From contig CP120462.1 in assembly GCA_034226945.1 (NCBI GenBank), forward strand, positions 124,001 through 188,000: DNA of 64,000 nucleotides. Reading direction: 5' to 3'. Of the stretch, positions 1,795 to 53,899 are shown one piece after another. The notes beneath the pieces were generated by a model. The model saw nothing but the letters and a program-made list of their open reading frames with translations, made no database searches and had not been told where the DNA came from. The DNA is from Picochlorum sp. SENEW3. Its lineage: Eukaryota. Made by a program: the position numbers and the translations under genes. Positions within the stretch are counted from its first letter, which is position 1, and each line of letters begins with the position of its first letter.

Positions 1795-2963
1795 ATGGCC
1801 TCTGTAGTCGCTCGTTTGAGACCAATGCTTGGACGCTCCGTCTTTGCGCCATCACAAGGCGCTGCTGGAGCGTCCAAATTCGCGATGATGCAGCCAATGA
1901 CTTCCTTCTCATCCATGAGATGGAAGGTTATGGCATCTGCAAAGACTGCCTACGTCAGCGAGACCAAGGTACGCTGCCATTCGTTCCATCTTCTTGTCCA
2001 GGCAAGGACTGTGCGCTCTTTTTGGATTGATTGTTACGATTACGAGTATATATGGATGCAGGGAAGTCCAGATACTTTTGAATTCCGTATTTTCAACTAC
2101 ACTGCCGACAAGGACACTGTCCTGTCTGCCTGGCATGACATTCCCTTGTATGCTGGACAAGGACTTTTGAACTTTTTGTGCGAAATTCCAAAAGAAACAT
2201 CTGCAAAGATGGAATTGGCAACAGATGAGACTCGAACACCAATCAAGCAGGACACGAAAAAAGGCAAACTTCGTCACTACCCATACAACATCAACTGGAA
2301 TTATGGCATGTTGCCTCAGACCTGGGAAGATCCAGGGCATGTGGATGCAGAGCTCAAGGCAGGGGTGCGTTGTTGTTGTTGTTCTGACAAATTCAAGTCC
2401 AATGAAAGAAACGCCATTCACACACACTTTTGTCTTATAGCAGCACATGTGCTGCGATGACGACTGTACGGCATTCTGCAATTTTGAGGACATTCACGTG
2501 TATACTTTCTATAGGGCACCAATGGCACCTGACCATATACACTATATATATGACTCACATGGTAATGCAGGGAGATAATGACCCAGTGGATGTTGTCGAG
2601 ATTGGTTCTTCACCATGCGAGATGGGAGGTATCTACACTGTCAAACCACTCGGTGTCTATGCCATGCTTGACGATGGAGAGGTGGACTGGAAAGTGATCG
2701 TCATTCGCTCCGATGATCCAAAAGCGGACGCTGTCAATGATGTTGACGATGTAGAGAGAGAGTTCCCTGGAGAACTCCAAAAGATTATGGAGTGGTTTAG
2801 AGACTACAAGATTCCAGATGGAAAGCCAGCCAATGCCTTTGGGTATGACTCTGCATGCCTGAATAAAGAATTTGCCATGAATGTTATCCGTGAGACACAC
2901 TCATTCTATTGCAAGCTCAAGTCTGGCGAGAGGGATAACACTGAGGAATTATCCTTGATTTAG
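1795..2963 (+). CDS. PPA: Soluble inorganic pyrophosphatase, plastid-targeted (3 exons)
   Basis: Exons 1795-1968, 2062-2364, 2571-2963 with GT-AG introns. Motifs SAWHDIPL, WNYGMLPQTWEDP, GDNDPVDVVEIG, DDGEVDWKVI, WFRDYKIPDGKP. Transit-peptide-like N-terminus. Confidence 0.95.
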
Positions 2964-3129
2964 TACAGGTGTAAGAAATTTGATTTGCATTTCCATCGCG
3001 CGCAACCATACAAGAATGAAACTCTGCATGCCATCGTCAACAGAATTTAATAAATATAGAGTTATAGTACATCCATACGTGTATCAGAGGGAGGAAATCT
3101 CGGATAGTCGTCGTTGTGGAAACATTTCA

Positions 3130-4700
3130 ATGATGGCGACAAACACGGGAACCCCGGCAGAGACCAGTGCCTGGGCTCGATTATCGTACGTAATTTACCC
3201 TGATCATAATCTGTCTGATACATGGGAACTGAGGATGCGATGATTGCAGACGGCAAGGTGGTGGACTAGACCTGCACAGTGTGTCCTTACAGGAGGCTCA
3301 GCAACTTCAACGACGTGTGCATGAATTGGAACGCAAGGTATGTGTGTATGTCAAGAGAGATAGACATCATATATATATATATATACGCAAGCTGAAAGTA
3401 AAAGAAGAAGAAGAAGAAGAGAGTCCACGTTGACAGAAAAAAATAACAGTGCATATATATATATATCCATGTGTGTGTGTTGCAGTTGGAAGAGAGTGAA
3501 AACATGTATGCTGATATTCACAAGGCATGGACAGAGGCATCAGCGTTCTATGAAAAAGTAGAGAAAGAAGTACAATCAGCGCATGAGCGATATCTACAGG
3601 AGAAGGATGCGTATGACAGCAATGTGGCAGAATTCAACGCAAGGATTCAAACGTTGCAAGATGCTTTGAGGGATGCCGAGAGTAGCGTGGCATCGGCGGC
3701 CAATGAAAAAGATGCAATGACCCAAAGAATATCTAATTATGAGAAAGAGTTGAAAACGCATCGGAAGGCTTCTGAAGAGTCGAGGGAAAAGGTTCAGCAG
3801 TTGGAGCAAAAAGTGGTGGCGTTGGAGAAGGAATTGGAAGATGCTCGGAACGAAAAGAGATCGTGCATGGCACAAGCTTTGCAGAAAGAACACGATGCGT
3901 CTCGATCTTTGGCCAAGGCTGAATCCTCCATGGTGATTGTTACGCGCAAGGAGGCACAGTTGGTACGACGAGAGACAGAACTGATACAGCAGCACCAACA
4001 GCATCAGGAGGAATATGAAGCATTACATAATGCGCTGGAAGAGAGGGAGCGTGCGTTGGAAGAAAAGGAAGCATCCCTTGCTATACTTGAAAAGACGTTG
4101 GCTGGGAATACGGCAAAGAGGGTAGAAAAAGATGCCAGTACAAAGGCATCTCCAGCCAAGAAAAAAAAGAGCACAGCACAGAATGATACGAAAACAGCAA
4201 GCACTGCCGGTACACCACGCCGTAAGACGGCAGACACTGTGGAACAGAAGGTGTCAGCAAGCACAAAGGGGAAGACAAAGACTCCTGCTGCTGCTGCTGC
4301 TACTACCAAAACAACAAAGAAGGCGACACGTAGTACTCCGACAAAGGCAAAGAAGAAGACAACAACGAGTACGACGACTTCCAAGACTCCGACAAAAGCC
4401 AAGGCCACACCAACAAAGACAAAGAAGACAACAACAACCAGTACTAGTAGCAGTGCAAAAGCCAAGGCAACAACCAAAAAGGCGACACAGAAGAAAAAGA
4501 CTAGTAGTAGCGCTAACACTACCAAATCAAAGGTGACAGGAGTGAAAAAGACCACCCAGACCAAGAAGAAGGCAAAACCCACCCCATCAACATCTCCTGT
4601 ACAGCAGCAGCAAAAGCAAGCTGAGACGTCATCCGATGTCACAACAACCAGGTCGGGTAGAATCTCCAAGAGAAGAGCCTTCGCCGATGAAGTATTATAA
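3130..4700 (+). CDS. Long coiled-coil protein with Lys/Thr/Ala-rich H1-like tail; NMCP/CRWN-like N-terminus (3 exons, 452 aa)
   Basis: Exons 3130-3185, 3250-3337, 3486-4700 join in frame via gtacgt..tgcag and gtatgt..tgcag introns. Heptad E/K/Q-rich rod, then a basic tail with TPTK/SPAK motifs. Confidence 0.75.
3368..3481 (+). repeat. Intronic microsatellites (AT)n, (GAA)n, (GT)n
   Basis: atatatatat, aagaagaagaagaag and gtgtgtgt runs inside intron 3338-3485. Confidence 0.8.
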
Positions 4701-4714
4701 AATTAAATGTAATA

Positions 4715-6060
4715 ATGAATCAGACAATAGCCAATCGAGAAGGTTCTTATGACGACCTGGTTCAATGCAGCATTCAAAATTGGTACTCTGCCTTTCAGAA
4801 GCACACATTTAAGACACATATTATAGAATTATCTGATACCATAGTTACATGGCTAATTGCTGATGGGATTGTTTTACGAAACATAGAGGATGCTGTACGT
4901 TTTAGCCTTGTCATCTCTCTTCTCACGCATGGCTGAATTATCATACCTATACACGCAGTTTCCTACCCGTGAGAAGGATCCATACGATACAAATGATTCA
5001 TGGAGCACGGAATCCTCCTCTTCTTCTGCAGAGACAGGCGGGGCTCCTCCAGAAGAGCTGGCAGAGGTGTATGCCAGGGTGAAGGATGCCATTGACGATT
5101 TGGGTGGCCGTGTGATTCCAAAACTTCAGTGGAGCTGTCCTAAAGATGCCTCATGGATGATGCCTAATAATACGATACAGTGCTCTACGGCGGATGACGT
5201 GTTTCTGCTTCTCAAGAGTTCTGATAGGATTGCTCATGATGTAGAGGTGTTGCAACAGATTTGTCACCAGTCATCTCCACGCAGTCCTCTGGTATCTACG
5301 ATGACACACAATCATCATCATCATCATGATGAAGAAGATGAAGAAGATGAAGAGATAGTAAAATTACCGGAAAAAGCTCACGTCTTGGCACTACGACGAT
5401 GGTATGATTTGAAACCTGGCAGGGAATTCCGTTGCTTTGTCAAGAACAACAGACTGATCGGTATGTATACTATGCTTCCGTTTCTTCTTACGAAAAAAGA
5501 CTCGTATCTCGTATACGAATAAAATCCTGACTCTTCTTTTTCTGTTGTATTCTGCAGCAATCAGCCAGAGAGATGTTTCCTGCAAGTACCAGCACATTAT
5601 TAACCATGTGGATGCCATCAAACAGCGAATCCAACACATGTATGACACTGTCATTCACACTCGATTCAGCTTGGTCAACTTTTCCTTTGACTGCTATGTC
5701 CCAGAGGCAGAACATGCGTCGGTACGCATCATTGATTTCAACCCTTTCCACGATCAGGAGGAAGAAGAACTAGTAGAGGAGGAAGACCAACAACAAGAAC
5801 AAGAGCATGCCATGGTCTCTGCTGTGACAAATCCATTGCTCTTCACCTGGGAGGACATTCACGCATTATCCAACACCCAAGATGAACGTGTCGAATTTCG
5901 ATACATTGACCAGGATGTTCCAGTACAACCAGAATCCGCCCTCTATGGCGTCCCATTTGATTTCGTCGACACCAGGCAAGGCAGCGCCCTCACCAATCTG
6001 CTCGACCAGACCAATGCATCATGGAAGGAATTCGAATCTACCTACTCTCCACAAAAATAA
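4715..6060 (+). CDS. CDC123: Cell division cycle protein 123 (eIF2 assembly factor, D123 family; 3 exons)
   Basis: Exons 4715-4894, 4959-5460, 5558-6060. Motifs CSIQNWY, IPKLQWSCPKDASW, DVFLLLKSSDRIAHD, LRRWYDL..GREFRCFV, AISQRD, IIDFNPF, NPLLFTWED. Confidence 0.92.
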
Positions 6061-7337: not shown

Positions 7338-7666
7338 GCTGATTTGTCGATACTACAATATAATGGGAAAATCGATACACTAGTGCATCCATCTCTTGTG
7401 ATGGATGTACCAACGGTGGTGGGGCGTATATTTTTATTGTATTCATTTACGGTGAAATCGCTCCGTCATGGACAGGTACCGTCCTTGTCTCGGACAACCG
7501 GAGCAGTGGAATTTTTGAATATATTTGTGGTTTGGTCCCACCTGCGGAGAAGAACGCGACCAGTGTAGTGTCGTGGGGGGACTTTGACCAGGTTCCGAGA
7601 GGCACACAGACGGAACAACCATATGTTGCCCATTGTTGATTGATTTGACATTTATGATATATAAAA

Positions 7667-8482
7667 ATGTCTCCAGTGCTACCAAAAAGTGTATTGTTGT
7701 ATGAGGATGGGGATGTGGGTGTGAACGAGACAGTAACCACGGGGCACGTGCATAAGAAGAATAAAAAGCATCATACGAGTGTGGAATATCCGACATTGTG
7801 TCGACAAAGGTTGCAACAGTTGTTATTGGCTGAGATACGAGCGTTTGATAGGTATAGTATGTTGCGGGAGACGGAGACTGTGGTGACGAATTTGGTTGGG
7901 GAGAGATGCACGCTGAACCTGAGGAGGATGAGTTTGGAGCAGCGTTCGAAGCAGGATGAAGTTGAAGAAGAGATGAGGTTGAGGATACATGCGGAGCAGA
8001 AGGCGGCGTTGTTGAGGCGGTGGAGCGGGGAGGATACTGTTCCGAGTGCGTCTGTGTGTGGGTTGCCCTTGTATGTGGGGTCGAGTATGGCAGCGAAGAA
8101 TGCAGCGGCGTTGCGAGAGAAACAGGTGACCCATGTGGTGAATGCGAGTCCAATTGTACCGTGTTACTACATGGGGAAGGGTGGTTGGTGTTTGGAGTAT
8201 CTGAAGATTCCTGTATTTGATGATGGGAGTATCAATATTCGTTGCTACTTTGATCAGGTGTTTGAATTTATTGATCAGGGATGTCGAGAGGGTGGAGTTT
8301 TGGTTCATTGTTCTGCTGGACAGAGTCGGAGTGTTGCTTTTGTGGTTGGATACCTTGTGAGTCGGCATGGGTTGAGCGTGGATGATGCACTGCGTGCAGT
8401 CCAGCGCGTTCGACCATGTGCACTACCAAATGATGGATTTATGGAGCAGTTGAAAGAGTATGAGAACGAGATAAATCAATGA
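7667..8482 (+). CDS. Dual-specificity protein phosphatase
   Basis: Catalytic VLVHCSAGQSRS (HCx5R), LYVGS, THVVNA, and RPCALPNDGFMEQL. Confidence 0.92.
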   Translation: MSPVLPKSVLLYEDGDVGVNETVTTGHVHKKNKKHHTSVEYPTLCRQRLQQLLLAEIRAFDRYSMLRETETVVTNLVGERCTLNLRRMSLEQRSKQDEVEEEMRLRIHAEQKAALLRRWSGEDTVPSASVCGLPLYVGSSMAAKNAAALREKQVTHVVNASPIVPCYYMGKGGWCLEYLKIPVFDDGSINIRCYFDQVFEFIDQGCREGGVLVHCSAGQSRSVAFVVGYLVSRHGLSVDDALRAVQRVRPCALPNDGFMEQLKEYENEINQ

Positions 8483-8549: not shown

Positions 8550-11500
8550 TCACGTGCCAGGATTGAGCTGCTGTTCCATCATTCTCCTGTATGCCTCTCT
8601 CCTCTTTTCTTCTTGTCTCGCTACTTGCTGTCGACGGAGGGCACGTAATTCAGCACATCGAGGGACTGGACAGTTTGATTGGGTGCACATTTTGGCATGG
8701 AGTTGCAAAAACTGCCACAGTTTTCTGCAATATTGGCATCCCCCTGTCAGCCTTGTTCTGCAATCATTTGCATGTCGGAAGAGGTTTTTAAACTTCAAGC
8801 ACAGTGCACTCTTGCACTCGCGATCTCTGCATTGTGATGAATGCAATAAAACTCTCAACATTTCCTTTAATGCATTTTCTCTCTTGCGCTGTTCCTCTTG
8901 CGTGAGGCGCATACATGTCTCATCAAACTTTTTCTTTTCTGGGGCAGTGAGCGGATGTTGATGCGTGACGAGAGGATTTTGGTAGCATGTGCTGCACATG
9001 TCAAAATCAGGGCACTGTGAGCAGCGGTAGCCCTGTCCTGGTTGCACTTCACCCTGGCACACATTGCATGTTGCTGAAAATGCTGGTTCGCTTGGGTTGT
9101 GCAAATGATACAGCGCCATCATCGACGAGTGCCTTGCCCTTCTCAAGGTATCGAATTGATAATGATTTCCTTGACAAAGGGATAGGAATTGCTGTCTTGT
9201 GTCGAAAAATTCGCTGTCCATCGTAGGGTCATCATCCTGATTTGATGGGATGATGGGACACTGCTCTTCGACTAAATCTGACAAGGAAATGCCATTGGGC
9301 AGACCCAGAGGCTTTTCATCCTCGAGCTGGTTACCTTCTCGTAAGTAGCATTTTTCGCACAACTGGAACCGCGTCAATGAGACCGATTTGGATGAACTTG
9401 TCCCTGGCTTGTCCAATGATATACCATCAAACACCTTCTCACTCTTTATTGTAACCTTTTGTGGCGGGTTTGGATGATAGTATCTCGCACTTCCATTGAT
9501 ATATACTCGACAGTGAGAGCAAGATTCGTAAAGATGGGCTACGATAAAATCCTCCTTCATCTTTTGCATGTCAGCGTATTCTGCGAGCTGAGCAAGAAGA
9601 ATCTGACCCGGTCCAGCACCGTCTGGCAGCCTCAGCCGTTTCTCTTTCTTTCCCTTCATAGAGCCACTAGAAATTCCAGCATCGCCTTGTGCCAAGAGCC
9701 TTTCAGCCTCACCCGGCCAATAGTCCCCTGCTAGATATGGCAGATCTGCTACAGATGGCTTTTCTAGACGGTGATCTCGTCCACCTTCAAAAAAGGTGTC
9801 TACCAAATTTGAAATGTACACAACCGTATTTTCGCTTTTAGATTTGTTGAGCATACTCAGATACCATTCTCGTAGTCTATCTGAACGAGGCACCTTCTGC
9901 TTTCCGGGATGGCAGTAGAAAATGTAATCATCTCCCTGCATTGGCGGACAAGCCCATATGTACATTGCACAGAACCCTCTCTCTTTGACATCCTGTAGGT
10001 ACCCCATCAGCAACTCATGATAGGCCAGGGTGCGCAGAGCAATGCCCAGTCCCATCGCCTGAGTGCCTTCTGGTTGGAAGTACTTGACCGAATCCAAGTA
10101 TGATAGATAGACGGTTCTGTTGTTTGGGGCAGGACAGTCATCCCCATACTCCTGAACATACATACAAAACAGACACATGTCTACACCCTCCACTCTTTGA
10201 AACAGCAGAATGACCTTTTGCTTGTACATGTATGCATCTGGCCGTCCATCCTGACAAAATTCCTTTGCAAAAAGCGGCGTTACCTCCAATTTCTTCTCAA
10301 CATTGTTGACAACCCTGACAAATAGCGGAAAGTCTTCTGTATCTTTAGGGTCTACTCCCTCCTTAATTCTCTGCTCTTTGTCCTTCTCTATCACTTTGTT
10401 GAGACGTGATTCCAAGACATCAGACAAGCGACACCTGGCCAAGTCTTTTGCAGTCAACATGGCCTGGGGGCGTGTCTCCGGTATGGACCTTGTGCCCGCC
10501 TTTAAACTCGCCAGCAAACATTCTGGACAAAAGAATCCTCTACTATCATCGTTTCTACCCTTGTTGAACATTCCACAAATCTGATGTACCCATCCTTCAC
10601 AGTAATCACACTGCACCCATGCCTCTTCTGCTACAAACGTATTCTTGTTTTTCACTAGCTGCTCCTTTTTAATCGTAAACGATTCTAACATCAGCTTCTC
10701 CTTTGAATTCCTCACGCAATTCGAGCACCAAGTAGCCCTAATGTCACAATCAGGGGGAGATGCATAATATAGTTGATTGCGGCTGATTTTGACTCCACAA
10801 CTATAGCAATACAATGCCTGAGGCTCAAAAAGCAGCTTGTTATGATTGCATAACTTGCACTGCGACTCTTCCTCAATTAAAGCAGGAAGGTCAACCAGAT
10901 TTGATGCCGAGCTTGATTTCTTGGCTGGCACCGCAGGTTTGGCTGGCACATCTGATATCCTCAACATGGATAAATGCTTCTCAATTTCTTCCACTGTGAA
11001 GAATTCTATGAGAGACGTTCCCATATTGGACTTCAAGTTCAACTTGGGCTTTGTCTCTGTATTTACGATTGGCACAGACAAGTCTCCTGTTGAATTGGCC
11101 TGCGCAATCACATGTTTGCGCTGCAACTCTGCTCTCCTAGCCTTGGCCATTTCAATCTGTTTCTTCTGCTCCGCCTCCGTAAGACCACTCCTCGCTAGCT
11201 TGTCATTTTGCACCGACTCGCGCTGTCTTGCAACATACTGCTTTACAGGAATGCAGACGGGACAGTCTCTGCTCTTGCACTGCTGATGATGCATGAGCAA
11301 CGCCCTTGATGGCTCGCACCTGGGATACTTGCAATTTTTCTCTTTGCAACGTATGAGATGCTCCCATAGCTTTTTCGTCGTAGCACACGAATTCTTGTAC
11401 TGACACTGGTCAGGAGACAGTGTGCATTTGGCACAGTGCCTTAGGAAAAGCAGCCATTTCTGTTGAGTCAATATTTGAGCTTTCCTTTCAGCTGTATTGC

Positions 11501-12820
11501 CACTCTTGGGCACTTCAGACCTCAAAGTAGCATCGAAACTTTGTTTTCGTGACTCAGCAGCTTGATCAGTCACTGGAACCATTGGTTGTGGAGCCCCTCC
11601 AGCATCAGTAATTGGAATCATCTGCTGTTGGTTATTATCTGGTCGCTGCTCAGACCTAATAAAATAGGATTGGGACGCCGCAGTTCCACTAGTCGATGGC
11701 TGTGGTGGAGCGACGGCAACGCCATGACCGGGTTGCATCTGACCAGCTGGGGTCGATCCACGCAGAAGCACTGGTGCACCATTACTCATATACTGAGCTT
11801 GAGATGTATTCTGCTGCACTCCCTGAGTTTGGTACACACTTGTTTGCATCATCGGCTGCATGGGTACTTGTCCCTGATACTGATACGTCCCCGGCAGCAC
11901 CTGAGACGAATATGGCATGTTCTGATTCACCACTTGTGTACTCATCATTGGATATCCAGACTGCTGGGGCACACTATATCCAACATTTGAACCACTCTGA
12001 TGCATATACTGCCCATGCGTGCTCATATACTCATTGCCACTCGGCCTTGCAGCATTGCTCACTCCAAAACCAGTGTTCTGCCTCATTTCTCCTGCAACCT
12101 GGTGTGCCATTCTCTGCTGCATTCCCTGTGCAGGGCCTATATGAGACGTATCCTCACGAGGCCTCTTCTTCGCAAGTTTCGCAATCATAGTCTGAAAATT
12201 TCTAGACATCAACGAATGGTCCAAATATTGCTCCTACAACCAAACACCAACACACATTAGAATCCATGCCCTGCCATGGAAGCAGTCAAATAACACACCT
12301 TTGTCTGTGCTCGAGCAAACCATGCGTCTTCAACTCTTCTAGCCAAACCTAACAGAACCCTGTCATCGGCGTTGATATTATTCTTTGATTTGAAGACATT
12401 AACCAAATCAATCACAATTTTCCTTCGCTGTTCAACTGTTATAGTATCTTGCCACCTAGTCACAGCCATGGTCTGGATAACATTGACATCTTCCGCCTTT
12501 TGAGGAGCTGGAGGCTGCTGATTCGCATGTATCGACGTCGGCATATCCTGCCGACTGCCGTCTACACCTGTCGTCTGCACGACAGCTGTACCAGAGCCTG
12601 GTGCAATCGTTTGCTCCATGGATGGAACCATGGTCACCCCAAAGGAGGGTAATTCTCCCATCATTGAGGCAGCATCATGGTCCTCCGGCTGTTCCACCTT
12701 GATCTCTGGCCTCTCCGTCTTCACTTCTATATGTTGAACGGCATCAGAGCAGTGTGGGTTATTCCCAGTCAATTCAGCAGGCCCCTGCTCTTGTTTCACC
12801 TCATGGATCCCAGAATCCAT
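8550..12820 (-). CDS. HAC1: CBP/p300-family histone acetyltransferase (HAC1-like; KIX-like, TAZ, PHD, HAT, ZZ, TAZ; 2 exons)
   Basis: Exons 12820-12299, 12233-8550 (65-nt intron). TAZ (WLLFLRHCAKC), PHD (WVQCDYCEGWVHQIC), HAT (VYLSYLDSVKYF, YIWACPP..GDDYIF), [22 protein letters not shown], ZZ and TAZ2. Confidence 0.95.
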
Positions 12821-13384: not shown

Positions 13385-16300
13385 TCATGCATGCAATCCA
13401 TGTTGTCGTCGAATTTTGGCCAACTGTCTTTCTAAATCTTCTGCTCGTGCCTGTGCGGCAACGAGTTCTTGGACTTGTTGGGCAGCATCTGTCACTTCCA
13501 TGGCCATTTGATTTCGAACAGTTGCCAAAGTCTCATCTCTGGATTTGATCTGTGTCTTCAGAGATGCCACTTCTTGCGTCAGATGGAGTATTGTATCTTC
13601 TGCGTCTTGAAGTTTTTGTGATAACGTCCTGGCACGAGCCTCTTTGCCCAACGGTCCTGTGCCCTCAACCGATTCCATGTGGTCTTGGGCTCGGGCTTCT
13701 GCATCCTCTAGCTTCTCTTGCAGGTCTTTTACCTTGTGGACAAGATACTTCCGCTCTTCTGCCCATCCGTGATTTGATTGATCTTGTAACTTTTCGTACT
13801 TGTGTTTGGATGTCTCCAACTCCTTCTCTAATGTTTGAATGTGGAGCTGAGATGCCTCCAAATCTTGTGTCAACTCACGAATTTCTGAATCCATCGCCTT
13901 TTGTGATTCCTCCATCTTTTTCTGCAATTCTATGACTGTACCACGCAAAGAAGTCTCCGATTCATCAAGTTCAGATATCTGTCTGGATTTCTCCTTGAGC
14001 TTTGCTTGAGCCATCTGTGCGTCCATGTCAGCAGCAGCAAGTGCAGCTTGCAGGGAATATACTTCCTTTTCCCTCGCTTTCGACGCTTGGTTCATGCAAT
14101 CGTACGCGGTCTGCAACTCCTGGAGTTTCATATTGGTTTCTTCAACCAATCTTGTCTGTTCTATAACGTGTGTACGTGATGCCTCAAGGGCTGTTCTTGT
14201 CTCGGCCAGCATCTCCCCTCGTTCTTCATTTTCCTGTGTGATGCGTTGTGCATCACTCTCCGCTGTCAACATACGATTTTGTAATGTTTGCTTTTCTGAC
14301 ACAAGCATATCTATAGACTCTTGCTGTTCCCCGATCCTGGCATCCTTGAGCTGCAATTCCTTGTTCAGCAGGGATGCTGTCTTCAGCGCCTCCTCAACCC
14401 TTTGCTTTGCTTTTTCGTGCTGGCTTGTGTGTACATCCTTCTCTCTCGCGAATGATTCTTGCATATCATTGATCTTTTTAAGGAGAGTTGCTCGCTCATC
14501 CCATCCTTCAACAAGTGTTTGGAGAATGAGGGGATATGAATCACACCAATCATCTCGTTCCCGTCTCAACTGACTGCATCGTATGGTCAGTGTCTCAACG
14601 ACTGCGTCTAACTCTGCAGCGTGTGTACAAAGTCTTTCATACTCACACTGTTGTGCGGAATTTTTATCTGCAAGCATCTGCAAATTGTCGAGCTGCATTT
14701 CCAATTCTGCTATTCGCCCTGCATTCTCGACATGTGCTATTCTAGTTGGGGAGGGGCTCAGAGGCTCGCGCATCTTCTTTTCAGCCGTCCGTAAAACTTC
14801 CTTTGCTGCAGATGCTTCAGCACGGAGGGTTTGGACTTCCTCCATGGCCTGTTCAGCCACCGTTGACATGGCAAGCAGCTCCTTCCTGAGTTGCTGAAAC
14901 TCCTCCTCTGGAACCATGGCAGGGGAGGCCTCATGATCTTGTGCATGGTCTTCAATATGGCGTCGCAAGCGAATGTTTTCCAATGCAAATTTCTTCACTT
15001 CTGGATGTGCTTCAACCTTTTGTTTCAGCAGAATTATTTCCTCCTGCAAGGCAGCAACCTTGTGACTCTCAGCATGCGTGGCCTGTGATCTCGTAATCCT
15101 ACTCTCTTTCAATCGAAGCATCATTTTTGTCCGCTGTAAATCAGCTTCTTTCGCATCCACGAGTTCTTGTAGAAGAACAAGCTCCTCTTGGATCGACGCA
15201 ACCTTCCTACACATGTCTTCCTCACGCCGTAATGCTGCCACTAATGCCTTTCTAGACCCATCCTCCTCTACTGATTCTTCCTTCAGGCACACGTCACCAG
15301 GAATTTCTTGCTGAATAGCCTGCCCGCCACGTGCTCTTGATAATTCTTCCCTCAAATGGAGAACTTCTTTCTTCAACGATTCAACATCCCCTTCAACAGC
15401 CTGATTCACAACAGCCTTATTCCGTATTCTCTTGACATTATCAGCAAAACGGAGTGTACTGAGCGTCTCTGAAGCGTTAGACACTGATGGACTGATTGTG
15501 GCGAGAAGCACTGTTTTTGAGGTTCCTCCAAGGGCATCTTGGAGCAAGTACGTAAGCTTTGAATCCCTGTATGGTATATGTCGCTGCTTCCCTTGTTGGA
15601 GATCTACAAGACTCATAATCACGTGTCCCAGAGCTGATAGGGACTTGTTAATATTAGAAGCTTCCCTGAGGCGCTCTCCAGCAGCTCCAGATGCCTTTTG
15701 CCTCTCTGATCCTGCCAGATCAACAAGGTGCAACCTGGAACGGAGAATGACTGGTGCTACATGCCCTGGCTCCTCAATCGTCTGTTCCACCGTAGCGGTG
15801 AATACAGAATGTGATCGAGACGATCGATCGTTTGCTAGAGTTTCAGCAACCTTTCTATTAGACATACCCAGGCAAAGAAGCTCTTCGACATCCTCCACTG
15901 AAGACACAGCATGCTGTTGAACACCTTCCACATAGACTCCCTTGACAGGATCATCCCGAATGCTCAGGCCTACACCCTCTGGGTACGTTAAATCGGTAAT
16001 AGATTCGTTATAAATCTCAATAAATGAGCAGGCAACCTTGTATCGCATGCTTCCACCCTCGCGAGCCTTCTCCTGGCGCTGCACCACACAACCAATCATC
16101 ATACATGCATCATCGCGACAGCACACCCACAAAAGAAACGACACATACCCGACGCTCCATTTTTCGAAACAGATCTTCAAAAGACCTCTGAATCACTCCT
16201 CTATCAGGGTCATCACGCGACCTGACAACTGATGCACGCTCAGGAACACCCATCATAGAATACGTCTTTCCAGAACCAGTTTGCCCGTACGCCAACAAGC

Positions 16301-16844
16301 AACCATGAAACCCTTTCAAACAATTATCAATAACAGAGTTTCCTGCACTCTCGTACACGTCTGTCTGGCTCATCTTCTCATCCAGCACTGTGTCAAAAGC
16401 AAACGAATACCGCTCTCCCAACCCACTCTGTAAATGAATAGTTCCTTCACGAGATTCCACTGCTCCAGTTCGTCGATCCTTTTGACTCGTTGGACGAATT
16501 CTCACAACCACCTGTATCGACGAATCGTCCCGTTGAGAGCCACCATTCGCCTCTGAAACAACCTTACCTCGTGACGCAGGAATCAACTCTCCCTCGTGCT
16601 CCTGAACCACACACCGCATGGCTCCACTCTTCTGTGTCGACTGCTGTCGACTCGGACTCTTCACCCCATTTGCCGATTTCGGAATCCTAGATGGGGAAAA
16701 TGGGAACAACTTTCTAACCGTCCCTCGCCCATGCCCCTCTTCGGCCTTCGCAGGGGTCTTCTTCTTCGAAGATCCATGCATTTTACCAAACATATTCCCT
16801 AAAAACGTGTGCTTCTTCGCATCACTGTGTGCGGAACCCCCCAT
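13385..16844 (-). CDS. Kinesin-12 family motor protein (N-terminal motor, long coiled-coil tail; 2 exons)
   Basis: Exons 16844-16149, 16078-13385. P-loop AYGQTGSGKTYSM, NDRSSRSHSVF, LVDLAGSERQK, HIPYRDSKLTYLLQDALGG. PEVKKFALENIRL resembles plant kinesin-12. Confidence 0.9.
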
Positions 16845-17122
16845 GGCGGGAACGATCGCAAGAGCGGTTGACACCCGATACACGCCCTATACGCCTATGC
16901 GTTGGATAATACTACAATTTGTTCATATAATACAAATACATGTATCATATTACTTGTTATAGACGACTGCAGAAGTATCAGGCCCTTGTATACCGGTACT
17001 TTCCGAGCCCTCGATCGAGGGCGCCATGCATGGCTTTACAGCCGCTCAATGCCCAGAAAAAAAGACTGCCCTATCTATCTATCTATCGATTGTTACACAA
17101 TAAAAACCTATTACTATCTGTA

Positions 17123-23455: not shown

Positions 23456-25762
23456 TCAATCAAGTCGTACTGTTAGAAACCTCAGACTTGCTGCCCTATG
23501 TGGTGTGTCCTCGAAAAGAGCGCAGATCAAGCGTCGCAACTCTTCTCTCGTGAACCCAGCTGCAGCAAGAGTTCCATCTTCCCACCACTGCGCAATCTCT
23601 CTGGATGGAACCTTCATCATATCACATAGCTTGGTGAGCTTGAGCCATTCAGGCACAGCTTCCATGAGTTCCTGTCCCAATGCAGCATGTGAATCCGATG
23701 TCTCCTTTCCTAATCTTCCTATGACAATACAGTCCAAGAGACCGTTGGAATCGCTGGACGGGACGAGATCCTCTAGAATATGTGGGATGTTCTCAGATAG
23801 CTCCTCACTGATGTCATGCAGCTGCAGAATCGAATGCATCACGCTGTTTAGCACGCCAAGCAACAGAATAGAGGATACTCGTATGAATACATGGTTTGGA
23901 ATGTCTTGTTCTGGTAAACTCGCACCGAGACGCTGAAATATATGTCGCAGTCTCTGGACAGACTTTTTCTTTGCAATCATATCCTTCACATCAACATCCT
24001 GACTCCATGTGCATAGATGCATCGTCTCATTGTCTAATTCCGCTTTTTGCGACGCCAACATACATTGAAGAATCGTCTCTCCAAGCTGACGGATGTCCTC
24101 TCCATATTGATGACTGGAATTCCCTTGGCCACCTGACAATTGCCGCGGTCCAGCAAAACTCATCAAACTAAAGCATCTCGAAACATACGTGCAGGACATG
24201 TACCTCAAACATGCTGGATACATAGGCATTGATTGGCCTTGATGCATGTCTAAACCAGCCAAAGCAACAATCAGTGATGAAATATCCCGCAACAGTGTGG
24301 TCATAAAATGGCCATACTGGGCATCAGACAACTCTGCAGTCTGTTCCAATGATTCGAATACAAAATCTATAGATACCTTGTACCCTTCCAACACTGATAA
24401 GGGGGCCTCACAGTGTCCGAGAGGGTATTCTCGCTGCAACTCTCGGAATGCATTTGAATCAATGATGATCTCATCATCATCTACTGCTGGTAGTGACCCA
24501 GTATCAATGGACACAGACACCTGGGTATCTGCATGATGCGATATCAAAGACTCGCCGACCGAAAATCTATGAATACCTTGTTCCTGAAACGGAAGTATTA
24601 ATGCATCCCTGACTTTGGCGAGCACGTGTGCTCTCTTTGTCTTCAAAATCTCCCTGACATATTCCATGGATGCCACAGCTATTGGGCCCTTTGCATTGAC
24701 ATCTATATAGCCCAGCTTTGCTGCTTTCGTCTCCAATTTCTTGGCAAAATTAACCTGTTTCATAAACGACTCGGCAACCTGATCATCCAGTCCATCCCTG
24801 GCCAACAGGTTCATGTACAATTCTGTCAGTCTCCCCCACAGTGTCTTTCCAAGACACGCAATCAGCTCCGAGTCCTCACATAGAATACTCTCGGCGGTAG
24901 ATTTGAGTATCTTGTACAAGATTTTTTCTCGATACCCGATCGGATGTTTGCCTACATCCGAGAACTTGATCATCGCCGGATGGATGGACCCCTGAAAGAG
25001 TTCTTCAGACACAGCATTCATCACCTCATCAACAATACCTACACCCCTACAGCAACTCCACAGCAACCTTAGATATTCTTCGCTTGACAGAGATGAAGTA
25101 TCATTTGATTCCTTCACAACAACTATGGGCAGACACGCCTGGAACCCTATGCAGGAGAGAACCTCCTGCAACAACATACTCTGCAACTGTCCAGACACCA
25201 TCCTCAGCCTCTCCTTCATGTCATCATCCATCTCACCCATATTCTCCATCACATGAAGATGATCAACACACGCCTTCAAGTCCTTCTGTTGCATCGCACG
25301 TTCCATCTCCCCAATACTATGGGAGAAGGCCTGTGACAATGATTCACGATGCAGCTCCTCCAAAGCCCTCATCAACATGCCTCCAACATGCGCGTGATCC
25401 CACGCAATACGACAAAACCCGTATAAATCCGTCTCCTGATTCGAGATGAGCTGATCTGAGAGCATTTTGGACAAGGCTTGGCTACACTCCACGTCCTTCT
25501 CCAAGACAGTTGAACCATACACCACTTCTGCATTCTGAGAGTACGTATGAGCCGAATGGCGCACTAGCCCCTCAATCTTTGCATTTCTTTCTTCACGTAA
25601 ACGCAGTATGGCCTGCTGTATCGACTCAACTGACGCTGTATCCTACAGTTGGGAATTCAAATCACGCAAATAGTATCACAATCGAACCATATACTCTCAA
25701 TTCAGGCATACACGTACATCTATAGTCTCTATAATATTCCTCACGCGCGACTGAGTGTCCAT
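23456..25762 (-). CDS. ZW10: Centromere/kinetochore and NRZ-tethering protein ZW10 homolog (2 exons)
   Basis: Exons 25762-25718 (MDTQSRVRNIIETID) and 25642-23456. C-terminal ILQLHDISEELS...EWLKLTKL...WWEDGTL..AGFTREELRRLICALFEDTPHR matches ZW10. Confidence 0.82.
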
Positions 25763-28906: not shown

Positions 28907-29525
28907 ATGACGGCGATAAACGTGACGAGTGTCAACGTGCTGGACAATCCCAGCAAGGTGACGAATCCCCTCCAGTTTGAAATTCAATATGACTGTTTAT
29001 ACGATTTGGCGGACGGTGCGTGTGGGATCTCATGGTGATGTTAAGTAATCTATATGTATATATAATAATAACGAGGATGACGATGGTGGTGCAGATTTGG
29101 AATGGAAGCTGACGTATGTAGGCTCAGCAGAGAGTGAAAAGTATGATCAAGTGTTAGACTCTGTGTTTGTGGGGCCTGTGGCTCCAGGACAGTACAGATT
29201 TGTATTCCAAGCGGACCCTCCTAATTTTTCAATGCTTCCGTCTCAAGATATTGTCGGCGTGACGATTATACTGCTGACATGCTCGTATAGAAACCAAGAA
29301 TTTCTGAGGGTGGGATATTATGTCAATAATGAATACGAGGAGGAAGCATTGCGAGAAGAACCGCCATCAACTCCCATTATCGATAAATTAATGAGAAATA
29401 TTCTCGCTGACAAGCCTCGTGTGACCAAGTTTCCAATAGACTGGGAAGGACAGGGGAGCGGTGGACAGGAGCCGCAACAGCAGCAGCAAGAGGCACCGAA
29501 TGATGTTGCCGCCATGGAGCAATAG
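28907..29525 (+). CDS. ASF1: Histone H3-H4 chaperone ASF1 (2 exons)
   Basis: Exons 28907-29015 (MTAINVTSVNVLDNP...) and 29095-29525 (DLEWKLTYVGSAESEKYDQVLDSV...EFLRVGYYVNNEY...KPRVTKFPIDW). Confidence 0.96.
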
Positions 29526-48906: not shown

Positions 48907-51900
48907 TTAGACATAGCCATATGGTTGCTGTCCGTAGGCACCTGGAACAGCTGGTCTCATCATTTGCTGTGGTTCTCTAGATGGCATCTGCTGCTGATAG
49001 CCTCTTGGGTTTTTCTTAAACTGCACTAGCATGTGTTCCACTGTGCCATAAATCTTTTTTCTGAAATAGAATCCGTCTGGGAGGACGATGAAATATTCTC
49101 TTCGAGGAGAAGAGCCGATAAAATGTCCGAGGAAGAAAGCACCAGGTCGATGCACATCTGCTGCAAGGCAGTAGGCTGCTTGATTCGGGGCTCTTTCCTT
49201 TTGCATACGTAATTCCTCTTGTATATCCTCCCAGGATTTAGCCGGGCCTAATTCTGGCCCACCATTCCATTTTCTGTGGGAGGAGAGAGCTCTCATGGCT
49301 GCTGCCACAGGATCAATAAACCTCACAACCAACTCATCCAGATCTTCGTATTCAAATTTGTGTCCAGGAATTGGCTCTACCTCAAGAGGCGTAGAGAGAC
49401 GCAAATTTGCTGCAGTTGGTCCCAGTTCTTTGATTCCAATGTTCCAAATCAAACCACCAGGCATGCACATGGTAATATACAGTCTCCTGAAGGACTTTGC
49501 AGCTGGACGGATGACTGCCACTCCAATTGGGCCAGCAAGAACTTCTGCTGAAGCTTCACCTGCAGTGATGTTCTTAAAGTATGGGTGGCGAATAGGTCTA
49601 ATAGTTATCTTCGACGTCTGCTTTGCCCCTTTCCTCTGGGCTTCCTCCTCCTGAAGGGTTTCCTTGTCAGGAATTGCATAGTACTCCTCTTGCTGAGCAA
49701 GATATTGATTCTCGTATTCCAAGTCGCTGTTCAGCTGATTGGAGGCCGTGGATAAATAAATGACACCATTGTCCGAGTCAATTGAAATTATTGCACCAAT
49801 GACCGTGTCTCCTGGTTTGAAGTAGTCTCGGCAATTGAGGACATTTTGTCTACTGCTCACCGAAGGAGCCTCAATGACTGCCTCTGTTCCATTCAATTCT
49901 GGGATGTTGCAAACAGCTGCCTCTTCGCTAACATAGCGGACTCTAGCCTCTACCTTTCTTCCAATTTTCACGCTGTATCTGTCCTCCCCAGCGACAAGCC
50001 AGAATATTTCCTCATTGCCTAGTTCCTTGAAATTTGGCCGAATTTCTCCGTATGGAGAGATCAATTCCATCTGGATATCAATCAACTTTGATAATGACAC
50101 AGATTCTTCTGATTGGGATGCATACTTTCTCATAAATTCTGCGAGATTTGTCTTATCCACCTTGTCAGGATGCTCCAACGCATACTCAACAAGAGAATCA
50201 TCAACCACATCAGCATTTGAAACTTCTCCTGCCAGAGCCATGGCTAAGTTGTAATCTTCAGGATGTATTCTTGTGTTGTCGATATAATTTGTTCCTAAAT
50301 TGCGGGATGCGTCAGATGAGGGACGAATGCTGAGGAAAGGAGCAGCGTTATGGAAAACACGAGGTCCCAAAAATCCAGACTCGACAAGATCATTCCTCTC
50401 CTCAACTGCTCCGTTATTTTTCAGGATCGTCTTCAATAGAGCTGCTGCCTTCCTGAATCCAAGACCTGGGACAAATGGAAGTACAGAAGATCTCCAATTA
50501 ATGCTCGCAGCCATGTTCAAATCAACCCCAAGTTGGGCGACAACTGAACAAATAACTTCTTCGAGATACCTTCCTTTCACCTCGTTTGGAATATATTTCT
50601 CCAACTGGTGCAACCTTACGGTCATTATCTCTTTATATTGCCCACAAATAGATGCAAGGACAGCGATGGGATCCAATGCCTCCCTTGCCAGTGCCACTGC
50701 TCTTCTAATTATTGGTGGGGAAGTTGGCAGCTCCATTTCTGCAGCATTGGAATTCTCCCAAGCCATTGCTATGGACTCGTCTGCAGGAAACTGTAAGATA
50801 GTACCCGTTTCAAGCGATGTCATCGCAATAGGATTGTCGGCCAGAATTTTCTCCAGGATTAGAGATAGATCTGCACGGAGAGACTTTGCCTCTGGATGGC
50901 CCATTCCTATGATGATGGCATGTGGTAGATGGGCTTCTATGAAATCTTTTAGTCTATTTGCATCTCTTGACTTTTTAGGATCGTCAAAAATAGAATACGC
51001 CTGGCCCTGAACGGTTCTTCGTTTAGGGATGAATCCTGAGAGCTGTGGGCAGTGCAAAAAGTCAATCAAAGAGCCATGGCCGTCAATGATCACAAGAGTA
51101 GAGGGGGGGCCGGCTTTATCACCAGCGCCATATACCGCAGCCATAATGCGCTTATCGTATACTTCTTCTCCGTCCTGGTCAAGTAGTGGCACCGGCGCCT
51201 TGACTGCATAGTTCCACAGGTTGTCTGCTGTTTCCTGAAGGACAACTTCCATGGCATCTGCTGCTAACCGCCTTCTGACTTCACTCTTGATAGATGGCAA
51301 AATATATTTTTCCACAGCCATATTGAGAGCCTCTCTTCTCAAATCATTCCATGTCTGAGACTGTTCAGTGAGGCCAGAGGACACGTACAGGTCCTGCAGT
51401 GGAGCAATCGCTGCTTGCAAATCTTCCTGAGGGTCTGCAAAATCGATTTCAAGTCTGACATACCCTTCCTGCTCTGCTGCGCTTAGTCTAAGAAACGTAT
51501 CTCTCCTTTTGAAAGATCGCAATGGCTTATTTCGTATTCTTTTTGCAACCCCTAGAGGATGGAAGGCATTCAATGCTGTCAGACCGGGTTGCAGAACATG
51601 GGTTGATACTGCTCCCTTGTTCCAAAATTGCTCCCTGATAGCCTTTCTCACAGCAGGCTCAGCACTAAGCGAGTGTGCCATCATCTTAATCGCACATTTG
51701 ATAACAAAATCCACATGAACAAATGCCGGATTCTCAGGGTTAACAAAATGCTCTAAAAATTCTGAGGGTTCTGACGATGGGTCTCCAGGTTCATTCACCT
51801 TGTATCCAGATTCTACATTCTCTGCAAATTCTCCAGGACTTATAGCAAATGACTCGATTGCTGTGTACAAACCACACTGTACCGCTAGCTTGAAGAGGCG

Positions 51901-53899
51901 ATTTCTCTCCACCTTTTTCGCCTTTCCCAGTGTTGGCTGATTTTCCTCATTCAGGTTGGACACTGTCAAAGCAGCCTTGAATTTGGATTCAATGTCATCG
52001 AGTGCTTCCATGGATGTAGAGTTTTCCAGAGCCTCGCCACAAGCTAAAGCAGCGGCGCTTTTTGCATCGTACTCTCCAGATTCAGCGGCAATCTGATTGT
52101 AAATGCCCCTCCTCTTCATTTTTCTATTTGTCATACTAGAGTATTTCAAGGCCAGCCTGTTCACCATGTATAAAATATCCCATCTTCGTATTCTCCTACA
52201 TTGAGCTTTGATAGCTCCTTGAGGCTCGGCAGCAGGATCATCCAGTGGCTCGTCAGCTGATCGAAGACACAAGAGTTCACCCAATTCATCCTTTCTGTAC
52301 ATGGCAATAAACGGTATGTCTTCATGGTCTTTGAATTTTCTCACAAGCAGGGCTTTAATAGATGTCTTGAGAGCTTTCTGTGCCTCCTCATTCTCCAACC
52401 ATGCCTCGAAATCATTCCCAAACCTTCCCATAAAAAGGCCTCTGTTTGACGAGGTCTCAGAAAACCCATTTCGCAAAGATTCGCTTGGCCAGTTCTCTCC
52501 CAACCACTGCAATGATACAATCAGGTAAGATGATATTCAACACATGTGTGCCATCAATAGATGTCACATACCTGCGGTGGATCTCCTTCCACTTCCCTCA
52601 CACCATCCTCGATTATGGTCCTTGCCTTGGACTCTGACTCAAAAATCAACTGCCTCCAAATCCACTCCGCACACGCATCACTTGTGAGAACGTCAACAGG
52701 GGCGAGAATGGACAATTGAATCTGTTCTCGCTCTGGAATATCAGTTTCTCTGATAATATCATCAGAAGGAAGCATAAAATGTCTTGCAGCTGCATCCGGA
52801 TCCATGCTGAGAAGCATGGCAGTATCTTTTTTCTTTGATTTCTTTTTCGATGCTCGCTGTGCCCTCATCTCCTCTGCTGCCTCTTCATCATCCAAATCAG
52901 AGGGCTGCAAGTCCCCGTATTCATCCGCCTCCTCTTCTTCCTCCTCCTCCTCAACCTCACCTTCTCGCTCCCTCCGTGCCATCTCATACCTTTCAAGATA
53001 CTCATCAACATCTCCAAAAATGGCATGAGCTTCTTCTAAAGCATTAATATCCACTCCGGGTATATTCGCCAATGCTGCTTGTTGCTTCCTTCTCCGCGCC
53101 TTTCGAGCAGCCTTGGCTGCCTCCTCACCCCCTTCAGCAGCAGCAGCCTCCTCAAACTCATCCACAATCCAGTCGTCTTCATCATCATCAAAGATATCAT
53201 CATCATCCCCACCATGTGCATCCTTTGCTGCATGCATCTCCTTGCCCCCTTCTCTATCCCCTCCAGTACCTGTGTCAGTCTTTCCAACGCCCTCCTCCCC
53301 AACATCATCCTCCAAATCCTCCTGGTCTGGCCCAAACAAATCTGCTTGCAAATCCTCTGGAGCCGCAAATTGATGCTGCGCTTCACCATCAATATCCCTC
53401 GCCTTCTTCAGGCGCCTATGCTGGGCTGGTCTCTGTCGACGAATCCCAGTATTCTCTTCCAACAGGTCGTAATCATCCTCTTCCAACACCAGCTCCCGAT
53501 GACGCTTGATTTTCTTCTTCTTCTTCTTCTCCTCCTCCTCCTCGCCACCTTCTTCTTCTTCATCTTCTTCCTCGCCACCTTCTTCGCCTTCCTTTGCTAT
53601 AAAATCGTCATTGAAATCAAAGTCGTCATCATCATCATCGTCGTCGTCCTCTTCGTCATCATCCTTCTCACCTCCCTACACACACAACAAAGATGTGAGA
53701 AAATTGTCCCCACCAAGCACCACGCCCACCTCAACCCGACAACAACACACACCTCGCCATCTCCACCATCAGAATCAGAAAATGAAGCATCTTCCTCCTC
53801 CTCTGGCAAACCATCCCCGCCAACCTCGTCGACGGCAACTGCCTGGCCAGACTCTTCCTCCTCCACCGCAGCCTTATCTTCAACAAACTGATCAGCCAT
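48907..53899 (-). CDS. SPT6: Transcription elongation factor/histone chaperone SPT6 (3 exons)
   Basis: Exons 53899-53753, 53675-52572, 52506-48907. Acidic N-terminus (LEEDDYDLLEEN), IRETDIPER, IPFIAMYRK, FVPGLGFRKA, DNTRIHPEDY, S1 and tandem SH2 (RPIRHPYFKN). Confidence 0.94.

Follow-up and report, generated by a model that had tools for sequence, protein, structure and literature searches.

Do green algae outside the streptophytes possess anything akin to the NMCP/CRWN proteins that build the plant nuclear lamina? The question is raised by a gene near the start of a 64,000-nucleotide (nt) stretch of the Picochlorum sp. SENEW3 genome (assembly GCA_034226945.1, contig CP120462.1, positions 124,001 to 188,000), hereafter called the window, from whose first letter all positions are counted. 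Passages in two published surveys (PMC6506774, PMC11604088) state that chlorophytes are without NMCPs and place the origin of the family within the streptophytes, tied to open mitosis, in agreement with the view taken when this gene was first proposed, from its sequence, to code for an NMCP/CRWN-like protein, perhaps a shortened lamina or chromatin-tethering protein. The follow-up reported here establishes that the gene is real, spliced and expressed. Its product is not a demonstrated NMCP; we favour, at even chances, its interpretation as a nuclear, chromatin-tethering coiled-coil protein whose head corresponds to the head motif 11 module of NMCP/CRWN proteins and which belongs to a family with an HMGN-like anchor.

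The gene lies on the plus strand and comprises three exons (3130-3185, 3250-3337 and 3486-4700), with a spliced coding sequence of 1359 nt that specifies 452 amino acids (aa) plus a stop. Exon 1 terminates in phase 2, within codon 19, with GTACGT right after it, exon 2 is preceded by a TTGCAG acceptor and immediately followed by GTATGT, and the frame of exon 3 is open over 404 aa from 3486 to 4697. We compared four public sequencing runs with the window over 2400-5400. One 988-nt contig from run X17, derived from a strain about 98% identical and labelled as RNA by a guess, is free of both introns: it joins 3185 to 3250 and 3335 to 3484 (with the cut moved by two positions, 3337 to 3486), GT..AG in both cases. 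Homologues P0005 and P0007 cross both joins continuously and P0003 crosses the second as well, and single-exon read-through pieces among the family matches break exactly at the two intron positions of the window gene. The contig and the homologues thus agree that the two small upstream exons splice in frame, as the original prediction had it, and the first 63 residues of the protein given there are identical to the translation of the spliced coding sequence. The DNA-like run X11 retains intron sequence wherever it is covered; the true RNA libraries X19 and X20 contain 5-6% of the words only, and two short exon 3 contigs from X19 were uninformative on splicing. An in-frame ATG near 3016 is an unlikely start, since the N-termini of both P0005 and P0007 coincide with the ATG at 3130. 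Two boundaries required correction: exon 3, implied earlier to begin at 3485, begins at 3486 (the frame from 3485 is full of stops), and position 4120, previously taken as the end, marks the end of the rod only, the gene extending to 4700.

The spliced X17 contig has its start within the final exon of the pyrophosphatase gene that lies upstream (window 2864-3185; stop 2961-2963), which could reflect overlapping untranslated regions, read-through or an assembly join of adjacent transcripts in a very compact genome. Between 3360 and 3480, intron 2 consists for the most part of microsatellites, (TA)n, (GAA)n and (TG)n, and contigs of several runs end there; the X11 strain carries an additional TGTGTGTGTG (a 10-nt TG insertion) behind 3469.

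The product has the layout described for it at the outset, a short head with a TP site, a rod and a basic tail. The head (residues 1-30) contains the TP site T8-P9, a SAWARLS stretch and a GGGLD turn; TP stands 1-5 residues ahead of SAW in five of the six full family heads, P0016 being without it. Residues 33-254 (about 220 aa) include zero prolines and zero glycines, and their hydrophobic 3.5-residue periodicity was equalled by none of 2000 shuffles. An AlphaFold2 model of homologue P0005, built from a 6-row alignment, shows a short helix (18-25), a loop and a single helix (36-227) with a predicted local distance difference test (pLDDT) score >90, followed by a disordered tail in which confidence rises slightly at the last motif. 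The roughly 200 aa of coiled coil expected earlier are confirmed by the shuffles and by this model as one 220-aa heptad-periodic helix; the modelled rod of P0005 spans 192 aa, and Picochlorum-type rods in general 190-220 aa. The isoelectric point (pI) is 5.3 for head plus rod, 11.1 for the tail and 9.8 (9.83) for the whole protein. Lamins and intermediate filaments resemble this protein in their head-rod-tail layout and in having cyclin-dependent kinase (CDK) sites on both sides of the rod, but the window protein has no Pfam Filament or lamin-tail match (E≤1) and no CaaX box (it ends in ..ADEVL).

An exhaustive search of 1.84 billion cluster representatives with a six-row family profile gave 14 matches at E≤1e-3, ten of them members or fragments of the family (P0003, P0008-P0011, P0013-P0016, P0018) and four attributable to repeat or TPR noise (P0012, P0017, P0019, P0020). 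Three word-indexed homologue searches returned only close family members (1, 5 and 2 proteins). P0007 carries a Picochlorum EukProt label, and the cluster of P0009 is named Nannochloris sp. 'desiccata' hypothetical protein; the label of P0007 also names a Chlorella protein, which was not retrieved, so that the reach of the family into Chlorella is unconfirmed. As far as the sequence databases show, this is a small orphan family of trebouxiophyte green algae of the Picochlorum/Nannochloris group, in which the Nannochloris-type members P0009 and P0011 have longer rods. Our literature searches found nothing tying Picochlorum to 'nuclear lamina', nor anything on the Chlorella locus tag in the P0007 label. 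Pfam returned for exon 3 a single entry, ATG16 (18.8 bits against a cut-off of 33.7), which was rejected as coiled-coil noise, and a profile search of the PDB gave 13 rows (E 0.02-1), all generic coiled coils, among which a keratin row (E 0.055) was likewise discarded as noise. The name 'chromosome segregation ATPase' given by one source to fragment P0010 is a generic coiled-coil label.

According to Ciska 2019 (PMC6506774), the conserved motifs of NMCPs comprise motif 11 in the head (GGLDEESLERKDRAALJAYI), motif 1 in the rod (MGLL core) and motifs 5, 14 and 4 in the tail. For comparison we assembled a set of plant NMCPs by scanning metagenome contigs for a degenerate, back-translated motif 1 stretch, which yielded 35 plant loci; exon 1 was located upstream in 23 of these, providing 12 distinct NMCP N-termini, six of them with the NMCP2-type head W[RK].F...GL[LM]DE. 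One locus, L022, is a contiguous cDNA-like open reading frame (ORF) and proves the join of NMCP exon 1 to exon 2.

Family and NMCP N-termini share, in one fixed register, a 40-residue module, W.R[LF]...G.LD..S[IL]....[DE]..L...[IV]..LE..L, which amounts to motif 11 plus its flanks. The motif 11 consensus scored 41 on P0011 and 34 on P0009 (0 of 1000 shuffles each) and more weakly on P0016 (26; 40 of 1000 shuffles) and the window protein (24; 36 of 1000), in all four matching members at the same family column. An earlier scan of three members had looked negative (window protein 24, 92 of 2000 shuffles; motif 1 nil), a result that changed only after the Nannochloris-type members were added. A hidden Markov model (HMM) of six NMCP N-termini gave 20.6, 16.4, 15.8, 12.7, 8.0 and 5.0 bits on six family N-termini, where controls reached at most 10.7 (1800 shuffles), 0.6 (reversed sequences) and 8.9 (545 natural coiled-coil windows). 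When 1275 six-frame ORFs of the window and four decoy proteins were ranked along with them, the six family N-termini occupied ranks 1-6. Profile-profile alignment with hhalign gave a score of 32.6 for the N-termini (E 1.1e-4; reversed and heptad-preserving shuffled controls ≤19.6), 34.7 with all 12 NMCPs (E 4.6e-5) and 31.7 for head against head (E 6.7e-6, probability 85%; 150 shuffles ≤19.3). The two subfamilies taken separately scored 27.1 and 33.2, and unspliced natural NMCPs against the full-length family 33.1 (E 6e-4) and 28.2 (E 2e-3) in the same register; overall, controls ranged from 9 to 20 and family-NMCP comparisons from 28 to 35. When the alignments were split, the whole signal fell within the 40 head columns. 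Part of the motif spacing first noticed by eye therefore stands: W, G.LD, S[IL] and L..[KQ][IV]..LE..L are in register, far above controls, whereas the NM and K-W matches lie 1 and 3 residues out of register, are not conserved within the family and have to be given up.

The exon structure points the same way at one position. The phase-0 intron between K48 and L49 of the window gene falls, under both HMMs, on the column boundary of the intron separating exons 1 and 2 of NMCP genes in 5 of 5 genomic loci, and all 35 NMCP loci have an AG acceptor immediately before the L codon of L[FYH][DE]YQ..MGLL. This phase-0 intron, shared at the end of the module, speaks for common descent of the head module with that of NMCPs, to which we would give roughly a coin-toss's chance.

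Exon 1 of eleven NMCP loci (L002, L004, L006, L007, L009, L011, L015, L020, L022, L024 and L031) begins with M[FS]TP, and these N-termini mostly have a W a few residues further on, reminiscent of ..TP..SAW in the family; the hhalign signal did not need that stretch. The tail of the plant CRWN1-like ORF L032 contains RRTRS in a basic cluster (residues about 836-858), and family member P0011 ends in ..RRTRSTGHV.

A number of results weigh against a relationship to NMCPs, or reduce what the comparison can bear. About 40 columns are all that the similarity spans, the alignments are small (effective number of sequences 1.6-2.6), and the NMCP set consists of angiosperm-like metagenome sequences, most of them spliced in silico, plus one cDNA-like plant ORF. 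With the full-length family as query, hhalign probabilities are 28% and 14% only, and the window protein by itself reaches a marginal E of 1.6e-3, so that the match holds at family level. The family HMM gave NMCPs 16.6 to 6.8 bits, compared with 13.5 for decoy P0012, which had itself been picked by the family profile; with the 12-sequence NMCP HMM the window protein (12.0) alone exceeds the decoy maximum of 9.5, and head-only HMMs were noisy, with decoys mixed among family members. A phase-0 intron after a K, E or Q codon is the commonest kind, and by our own estimate the odds of such a coincidence lie perhaps between 1 in 25 and 1 in 150. Zero NMCPs occurred among the 14 matches of the exhaustive profile search, and two ESM Atlas look-ups returned no named relative and no NMCP (scores ≤0.92 and ≤0.86). 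The RNA nature of run X17, finally, is a guess by an automatic label ('RNA?').

Further points on the same side concern the hallmarks of NMCPs beyond the head. Motif 1, with which the NMCP rod opens, is described as 'conserved in all NMCPs' save a few algal sequences (PMC6506774, PMC11604088); in seven members of the family its best consensus scores (7-15) fell in unrelated places, and between 107 and 894 of 1000 shuffles did as well. The tail motifs 5 (SWLRKCASKIF), 14 (..RYNLRR..) and 4 fared no better in the same seven members (best scores reached in 194-958 of 1000 shuffles), the acidic stretch of NMCP tails is absent, and hhalign of rod against rod scored 13.0 (shuffles: mean 9.9, maximum 17.3). 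The rod of about 220 aa is about a third of the usual NMCP length of several hundred, and coiled-coil domains of 292-730 aa are reported for basal NMCPs (Ciska 2019, PMC6506774). The protein is also basic (pI 9.8) and 452 aa long; NMCPs are acidic, and the limits of a 2024 screen (pI 4-6, >800 aa) exclude it.

Evidence of another kind comes from the 198-aa tail, which consists of 26% T, 22% K, 14% A and 12% S, contains KKKK/KKK clusters and carries five CDK-consensus sites, [ST]P.[KR], at residues 270-359 (about 4149-4418). Apart from point changes, close strains differ here only in indels of a whole number of codons (3, 6 or 9 nt; at 4203, 4284, 4294, 4386, 4456, 4601 and 4608), as expected for a disordered region in which selection keeps the frame and leaves the length free. 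The sole invariant tail residues among the Picochlorum-type members are the T, R, S, G, R, K and R of TRSGR..KR. They belong to a block located 13-16 residues from the C-terminus in the window protein, P0003-P0007 and P0016, which in P0016 takes the form RRSARLTK. Four of the eight arginines of the tail lie within its last 17 residues; its lysines number 43. The Nannochloris-type members P0009 and P0011 have in addition an AT-hook, RGRGRPRK.

Cryo-electron microscopy reported in PMC12487698 describes binding of the acidic patch of the nucleosome through an arginine anchor by RRSARLSA of HMGN and RRSSR of Dsup. Compared with the HMGN core, its putative counterpart in the window protein, TRSGRIS, shares R, S, R and S and has G for A and I for L. 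Tardigrade Dsup and HMGN have in common with the family an R-S-[AGS]-R core followed by an aliphatic residue and S or T within a disordered, lysine-rich protein, and P0016 has RRSARLT outright; unlike theirs, the putative motif of the window protein reads TRSGRIS and lies at the very C-terminal end of a coiled-coil protein, in which we see no further similarity. The tails of linker histone H1 and AT-hook proteins offer a second parallel, in the K/T/S/A/P-rich composition, in the repeated [ST]P.[KR] and, for Nannochloris-type members, in RGRGRPRK. In contrast to H1, the protein has no globular winged-helix H15 and no other Pfam domain, the AlphaFold2 model of P0005 consists of helix and disorder alone, and the window protein would dimerise through its coiled coil. 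A shugoshin-like or centromere-protein reading of the C-terminal block found no Pfam match and was dropped.

The conserved C-terminal HMGN-like motif, of which the earlier proposal made no mention, makes chromatin tethering the better-supported half of that proposal; a shortened lamina protein would be its possible other half. The HMGN-like block, the placement of the arginines, the H1-like S/TPxK tail and the AT-hooks of the relatives together suggest a rod whose C-terminal ends hold chromatin. As a single helix some 220 residues in length (roughly 30 nm), the rod would pair into a dimer, and the lysine-rich, H1-like disordered tail of each chain, bearing an additional AT-hook in Nannochloris-type members, would bind DNA, while the terminal [TR]RS[GA]R block might dock on the H2A-H2B acidic patch by analogy with the HMGN and Dsup motifs. 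At the other end, the head is envisaged as a short helix around W, a G-G-L-D turn and the start of the rod, and may serve self-assembly or docking at the nuclear envelope, as in NMCPs. Phosphorylation by CDK at the TP of the head and at the five [ST]P.[KR] sites of the tail could loosen these contacts in mitosis.

The same tail would also suit a protein without kinship to NMCPs that serves chromatin or mitotic chromosomes in this lineage alone, for instance as a dimeric compactor akin to linker histones or as a factor of the centromere or chromosome periphery, with a head and an intron that resemble those of NMCPs by chance or convergence. The H1-like tail with its CDK sites, the AT-hooks and the HMGN-like anchor require no lamina, and the orphan distribution, the restriction of NMCP likeness to 40 residues with full-length hhalign probabilities of 14-28%, and the HMMER comparisons that fail to clear decoys are all in keeping with such a protein. 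We nevertheless consider it rather unlikely: chance or convergence would have to account for one fixed register in every comparison and in both subfamilies, for scores about 10 standard deviations over column-shuffled controls where reversed profiles give nothing, for a matching stretch part of which (W...G.LD) is not coiled coil, and for a shared intron position and phase.

At the opposite extreme, the gene could be a true but drastically shortened NMCP/CRWN orthologue that forms or anchors a chlorophyte lamina under the inner nuclear membrane, with the head assembling filaments and the tail holding peripheral chromatin. All the head-module and intron evidence speaks for this as well, as does the tripartite layout, and the likeness, to the NMCP2-type head especially, takes in a short head with an S/T-P site (also present in NMCPs; Ciska 2019, PMC6506774), the 40-residue module continuous with a long coiled coil, a phase-0 intron whose aligned position is identical and a long disordered tail with basic clusters. 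Motif 1 is missing also from 'a few algal sequences' of accepted NMCPs, according to the legend of Fig. 3 of PMC6506774, and spikemoss NMCPs of down to 348 aa are reported in the same source. The window protein nonetheless differs from NMCPs in lacking motif 1, any rod likeness, the tail motifs (5, 14 and 4) and the acidic stretch, in a rod of 190-220 aa throughout the Picochlorum-type members, in a basic pI of 9.8 and in its chlorophyte host, and the exhaustive search produced no NMCP; orthology in this strict sense seems improbable to us. A non-nuclear coiled-coil protein of the cytoskeleton, basal body or plastid nucleoid, its tail bound to RNA, organelle DNA or microtubules, would agree with the generic coiled-coil look-alikes that alone were returned by Pfam, PDB (best E 0.02) and Atlas and with the generic 'chromosome segregation ATPase' label of P0010, but is most improbable given an N-terminus that is a conserved motif unlike a transit-peptide-like leader, the chromatin-type [TR]RS[GA]R, AT-hooks and S/TPxK repeats, and KKKK and KRR clusters that fit nuclear import.

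The interpretation as an NMCP-head-like, chromatin-tethering protein bears on how chlorophytes have been searched. The 2024 screen selected proteins of >800 aa and pI 4-6, followed by BLAST of an MGLL 50-mer, and recorded 0 candidates in Chlamydomonas (PMC11604088). Because large acidic proteins or the MGLL block were required, a basic protein of 452 aa that shares the head alone would be invisible to the published screens. What the sequence suggests is a new combination, in a lineage without a known lamina component: a short rod with an NMCP-type head, a tail like that of linker histones and an HMGN-like anchor. Should the sharing of the head module be genuine, the plant nucleoskeleton would have originated earlier, and the family would offer a concrete candidate scaffold of the nuclear periphery or of chromatin in chlorophytes. 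A more specific form of this idea, which we regard as doubtful, is that the family stands in chlorophytes for the NMCP/CRWN lamina proteins, as their counterpart or as an ancestral form that has survived; the head module of NMCPs, with its intron, would then be older than the chlorophyte/streptophyte split, green algae with closed mitosis would not be NMCP-free, and the primitive hold of NMCP-type proteins on chromatin would be an HMGN-like arginine anchor on the acidic patch. Separately, the family would be an example, from outside the animals, of a protein that carries an HMGN-like nucleosome-binding motif; the authors of PMC12487698 anticipate a still unexplored field of proteins bearing such a motif.

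Table 1. Features of the coiled-coil protein gene and of neighbouring genes, in positions of the window.
Feature	Position	Strand	Evidence
Exon 1: ATG, TP site T8-P9, start of head module SAWARL(S)	3130..3185	+	Translation; X17 join; N-termini of P0005 and P0007
Intron 1, 64 nt, GT..AG	3186..3249	+	Skipped in X17 contig; fragments of relatives (P0010, P0013-P0015) break there
Exon 2: RQGGGLDLHSVSLQEAQQLQRRVHELERK; G.LD part of the motif-11-like head and first turns of the rod; ends in phase 0	3250..3337	+	
Intron 2, 148 nt, GT..AG, phase 0	3338..3485	+	X17 contig; aligned with intron between exons 1 and 2 of plant NMCP genes
Exon 3, rod part: residues 49-254, uninterrupted heptad-periodic alpha-helix	3486..4103	+	Periodicity; AlphaFold2 helix of P0005
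Exon 3, basic disordered tail, K/T/S/A/P-rich	4104..4646	+	Composition; pLDDT <50 in P0005 model
C-terminal block TRSGRISKRRAF: HMGN/Dsup-like [TR]RS[GA]R, then KR and an aromatic residue	4647..4682	+	
Last five codons (ADEVL) and TAA stop (4698-4700)	4683..4700	+	Translation
CBP/p300-type acetyltransferase (KAT11, TAZ, ZZ)	8553-12233	-	
Kinesin	13388-16886	-	
ZW10	23459-25642	-	
ASF1	29049-29522	+	
SPT6	48910-53675	-	

The other genes of the window listed in Table 1 are ordinary nuclear genes, none of which bears on the finding, and histone genes were absent from the long ORFs that were scanned (54 of 123). An S/P/T-rich open frame of 262 aa without a Pfam match (7446-8231, minus strand) runs antisense to a dual-specificity phosphatase gene (7658-8479, plus strand) and is probably not a gene. 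Immediately downstream of the coiled-coil protein gene lies a D123/CDC123 homologue (about 4740-6060, plus strand), whose intron at 4895-4958 is skipped in another X17 contig. Three gene models of Nannochloris sp. 'desiccata' (P0024-P0026) fuse the coiled-coil protein (residues 1-551) to CDC123; the models are probably mis-joined, and gene order is conserved because CDC123 adjoins this gene both in the window and in the Nannochloris models. The GC content of 45-48%, together with the neighbouring genes, suits a compact green-algal genome.

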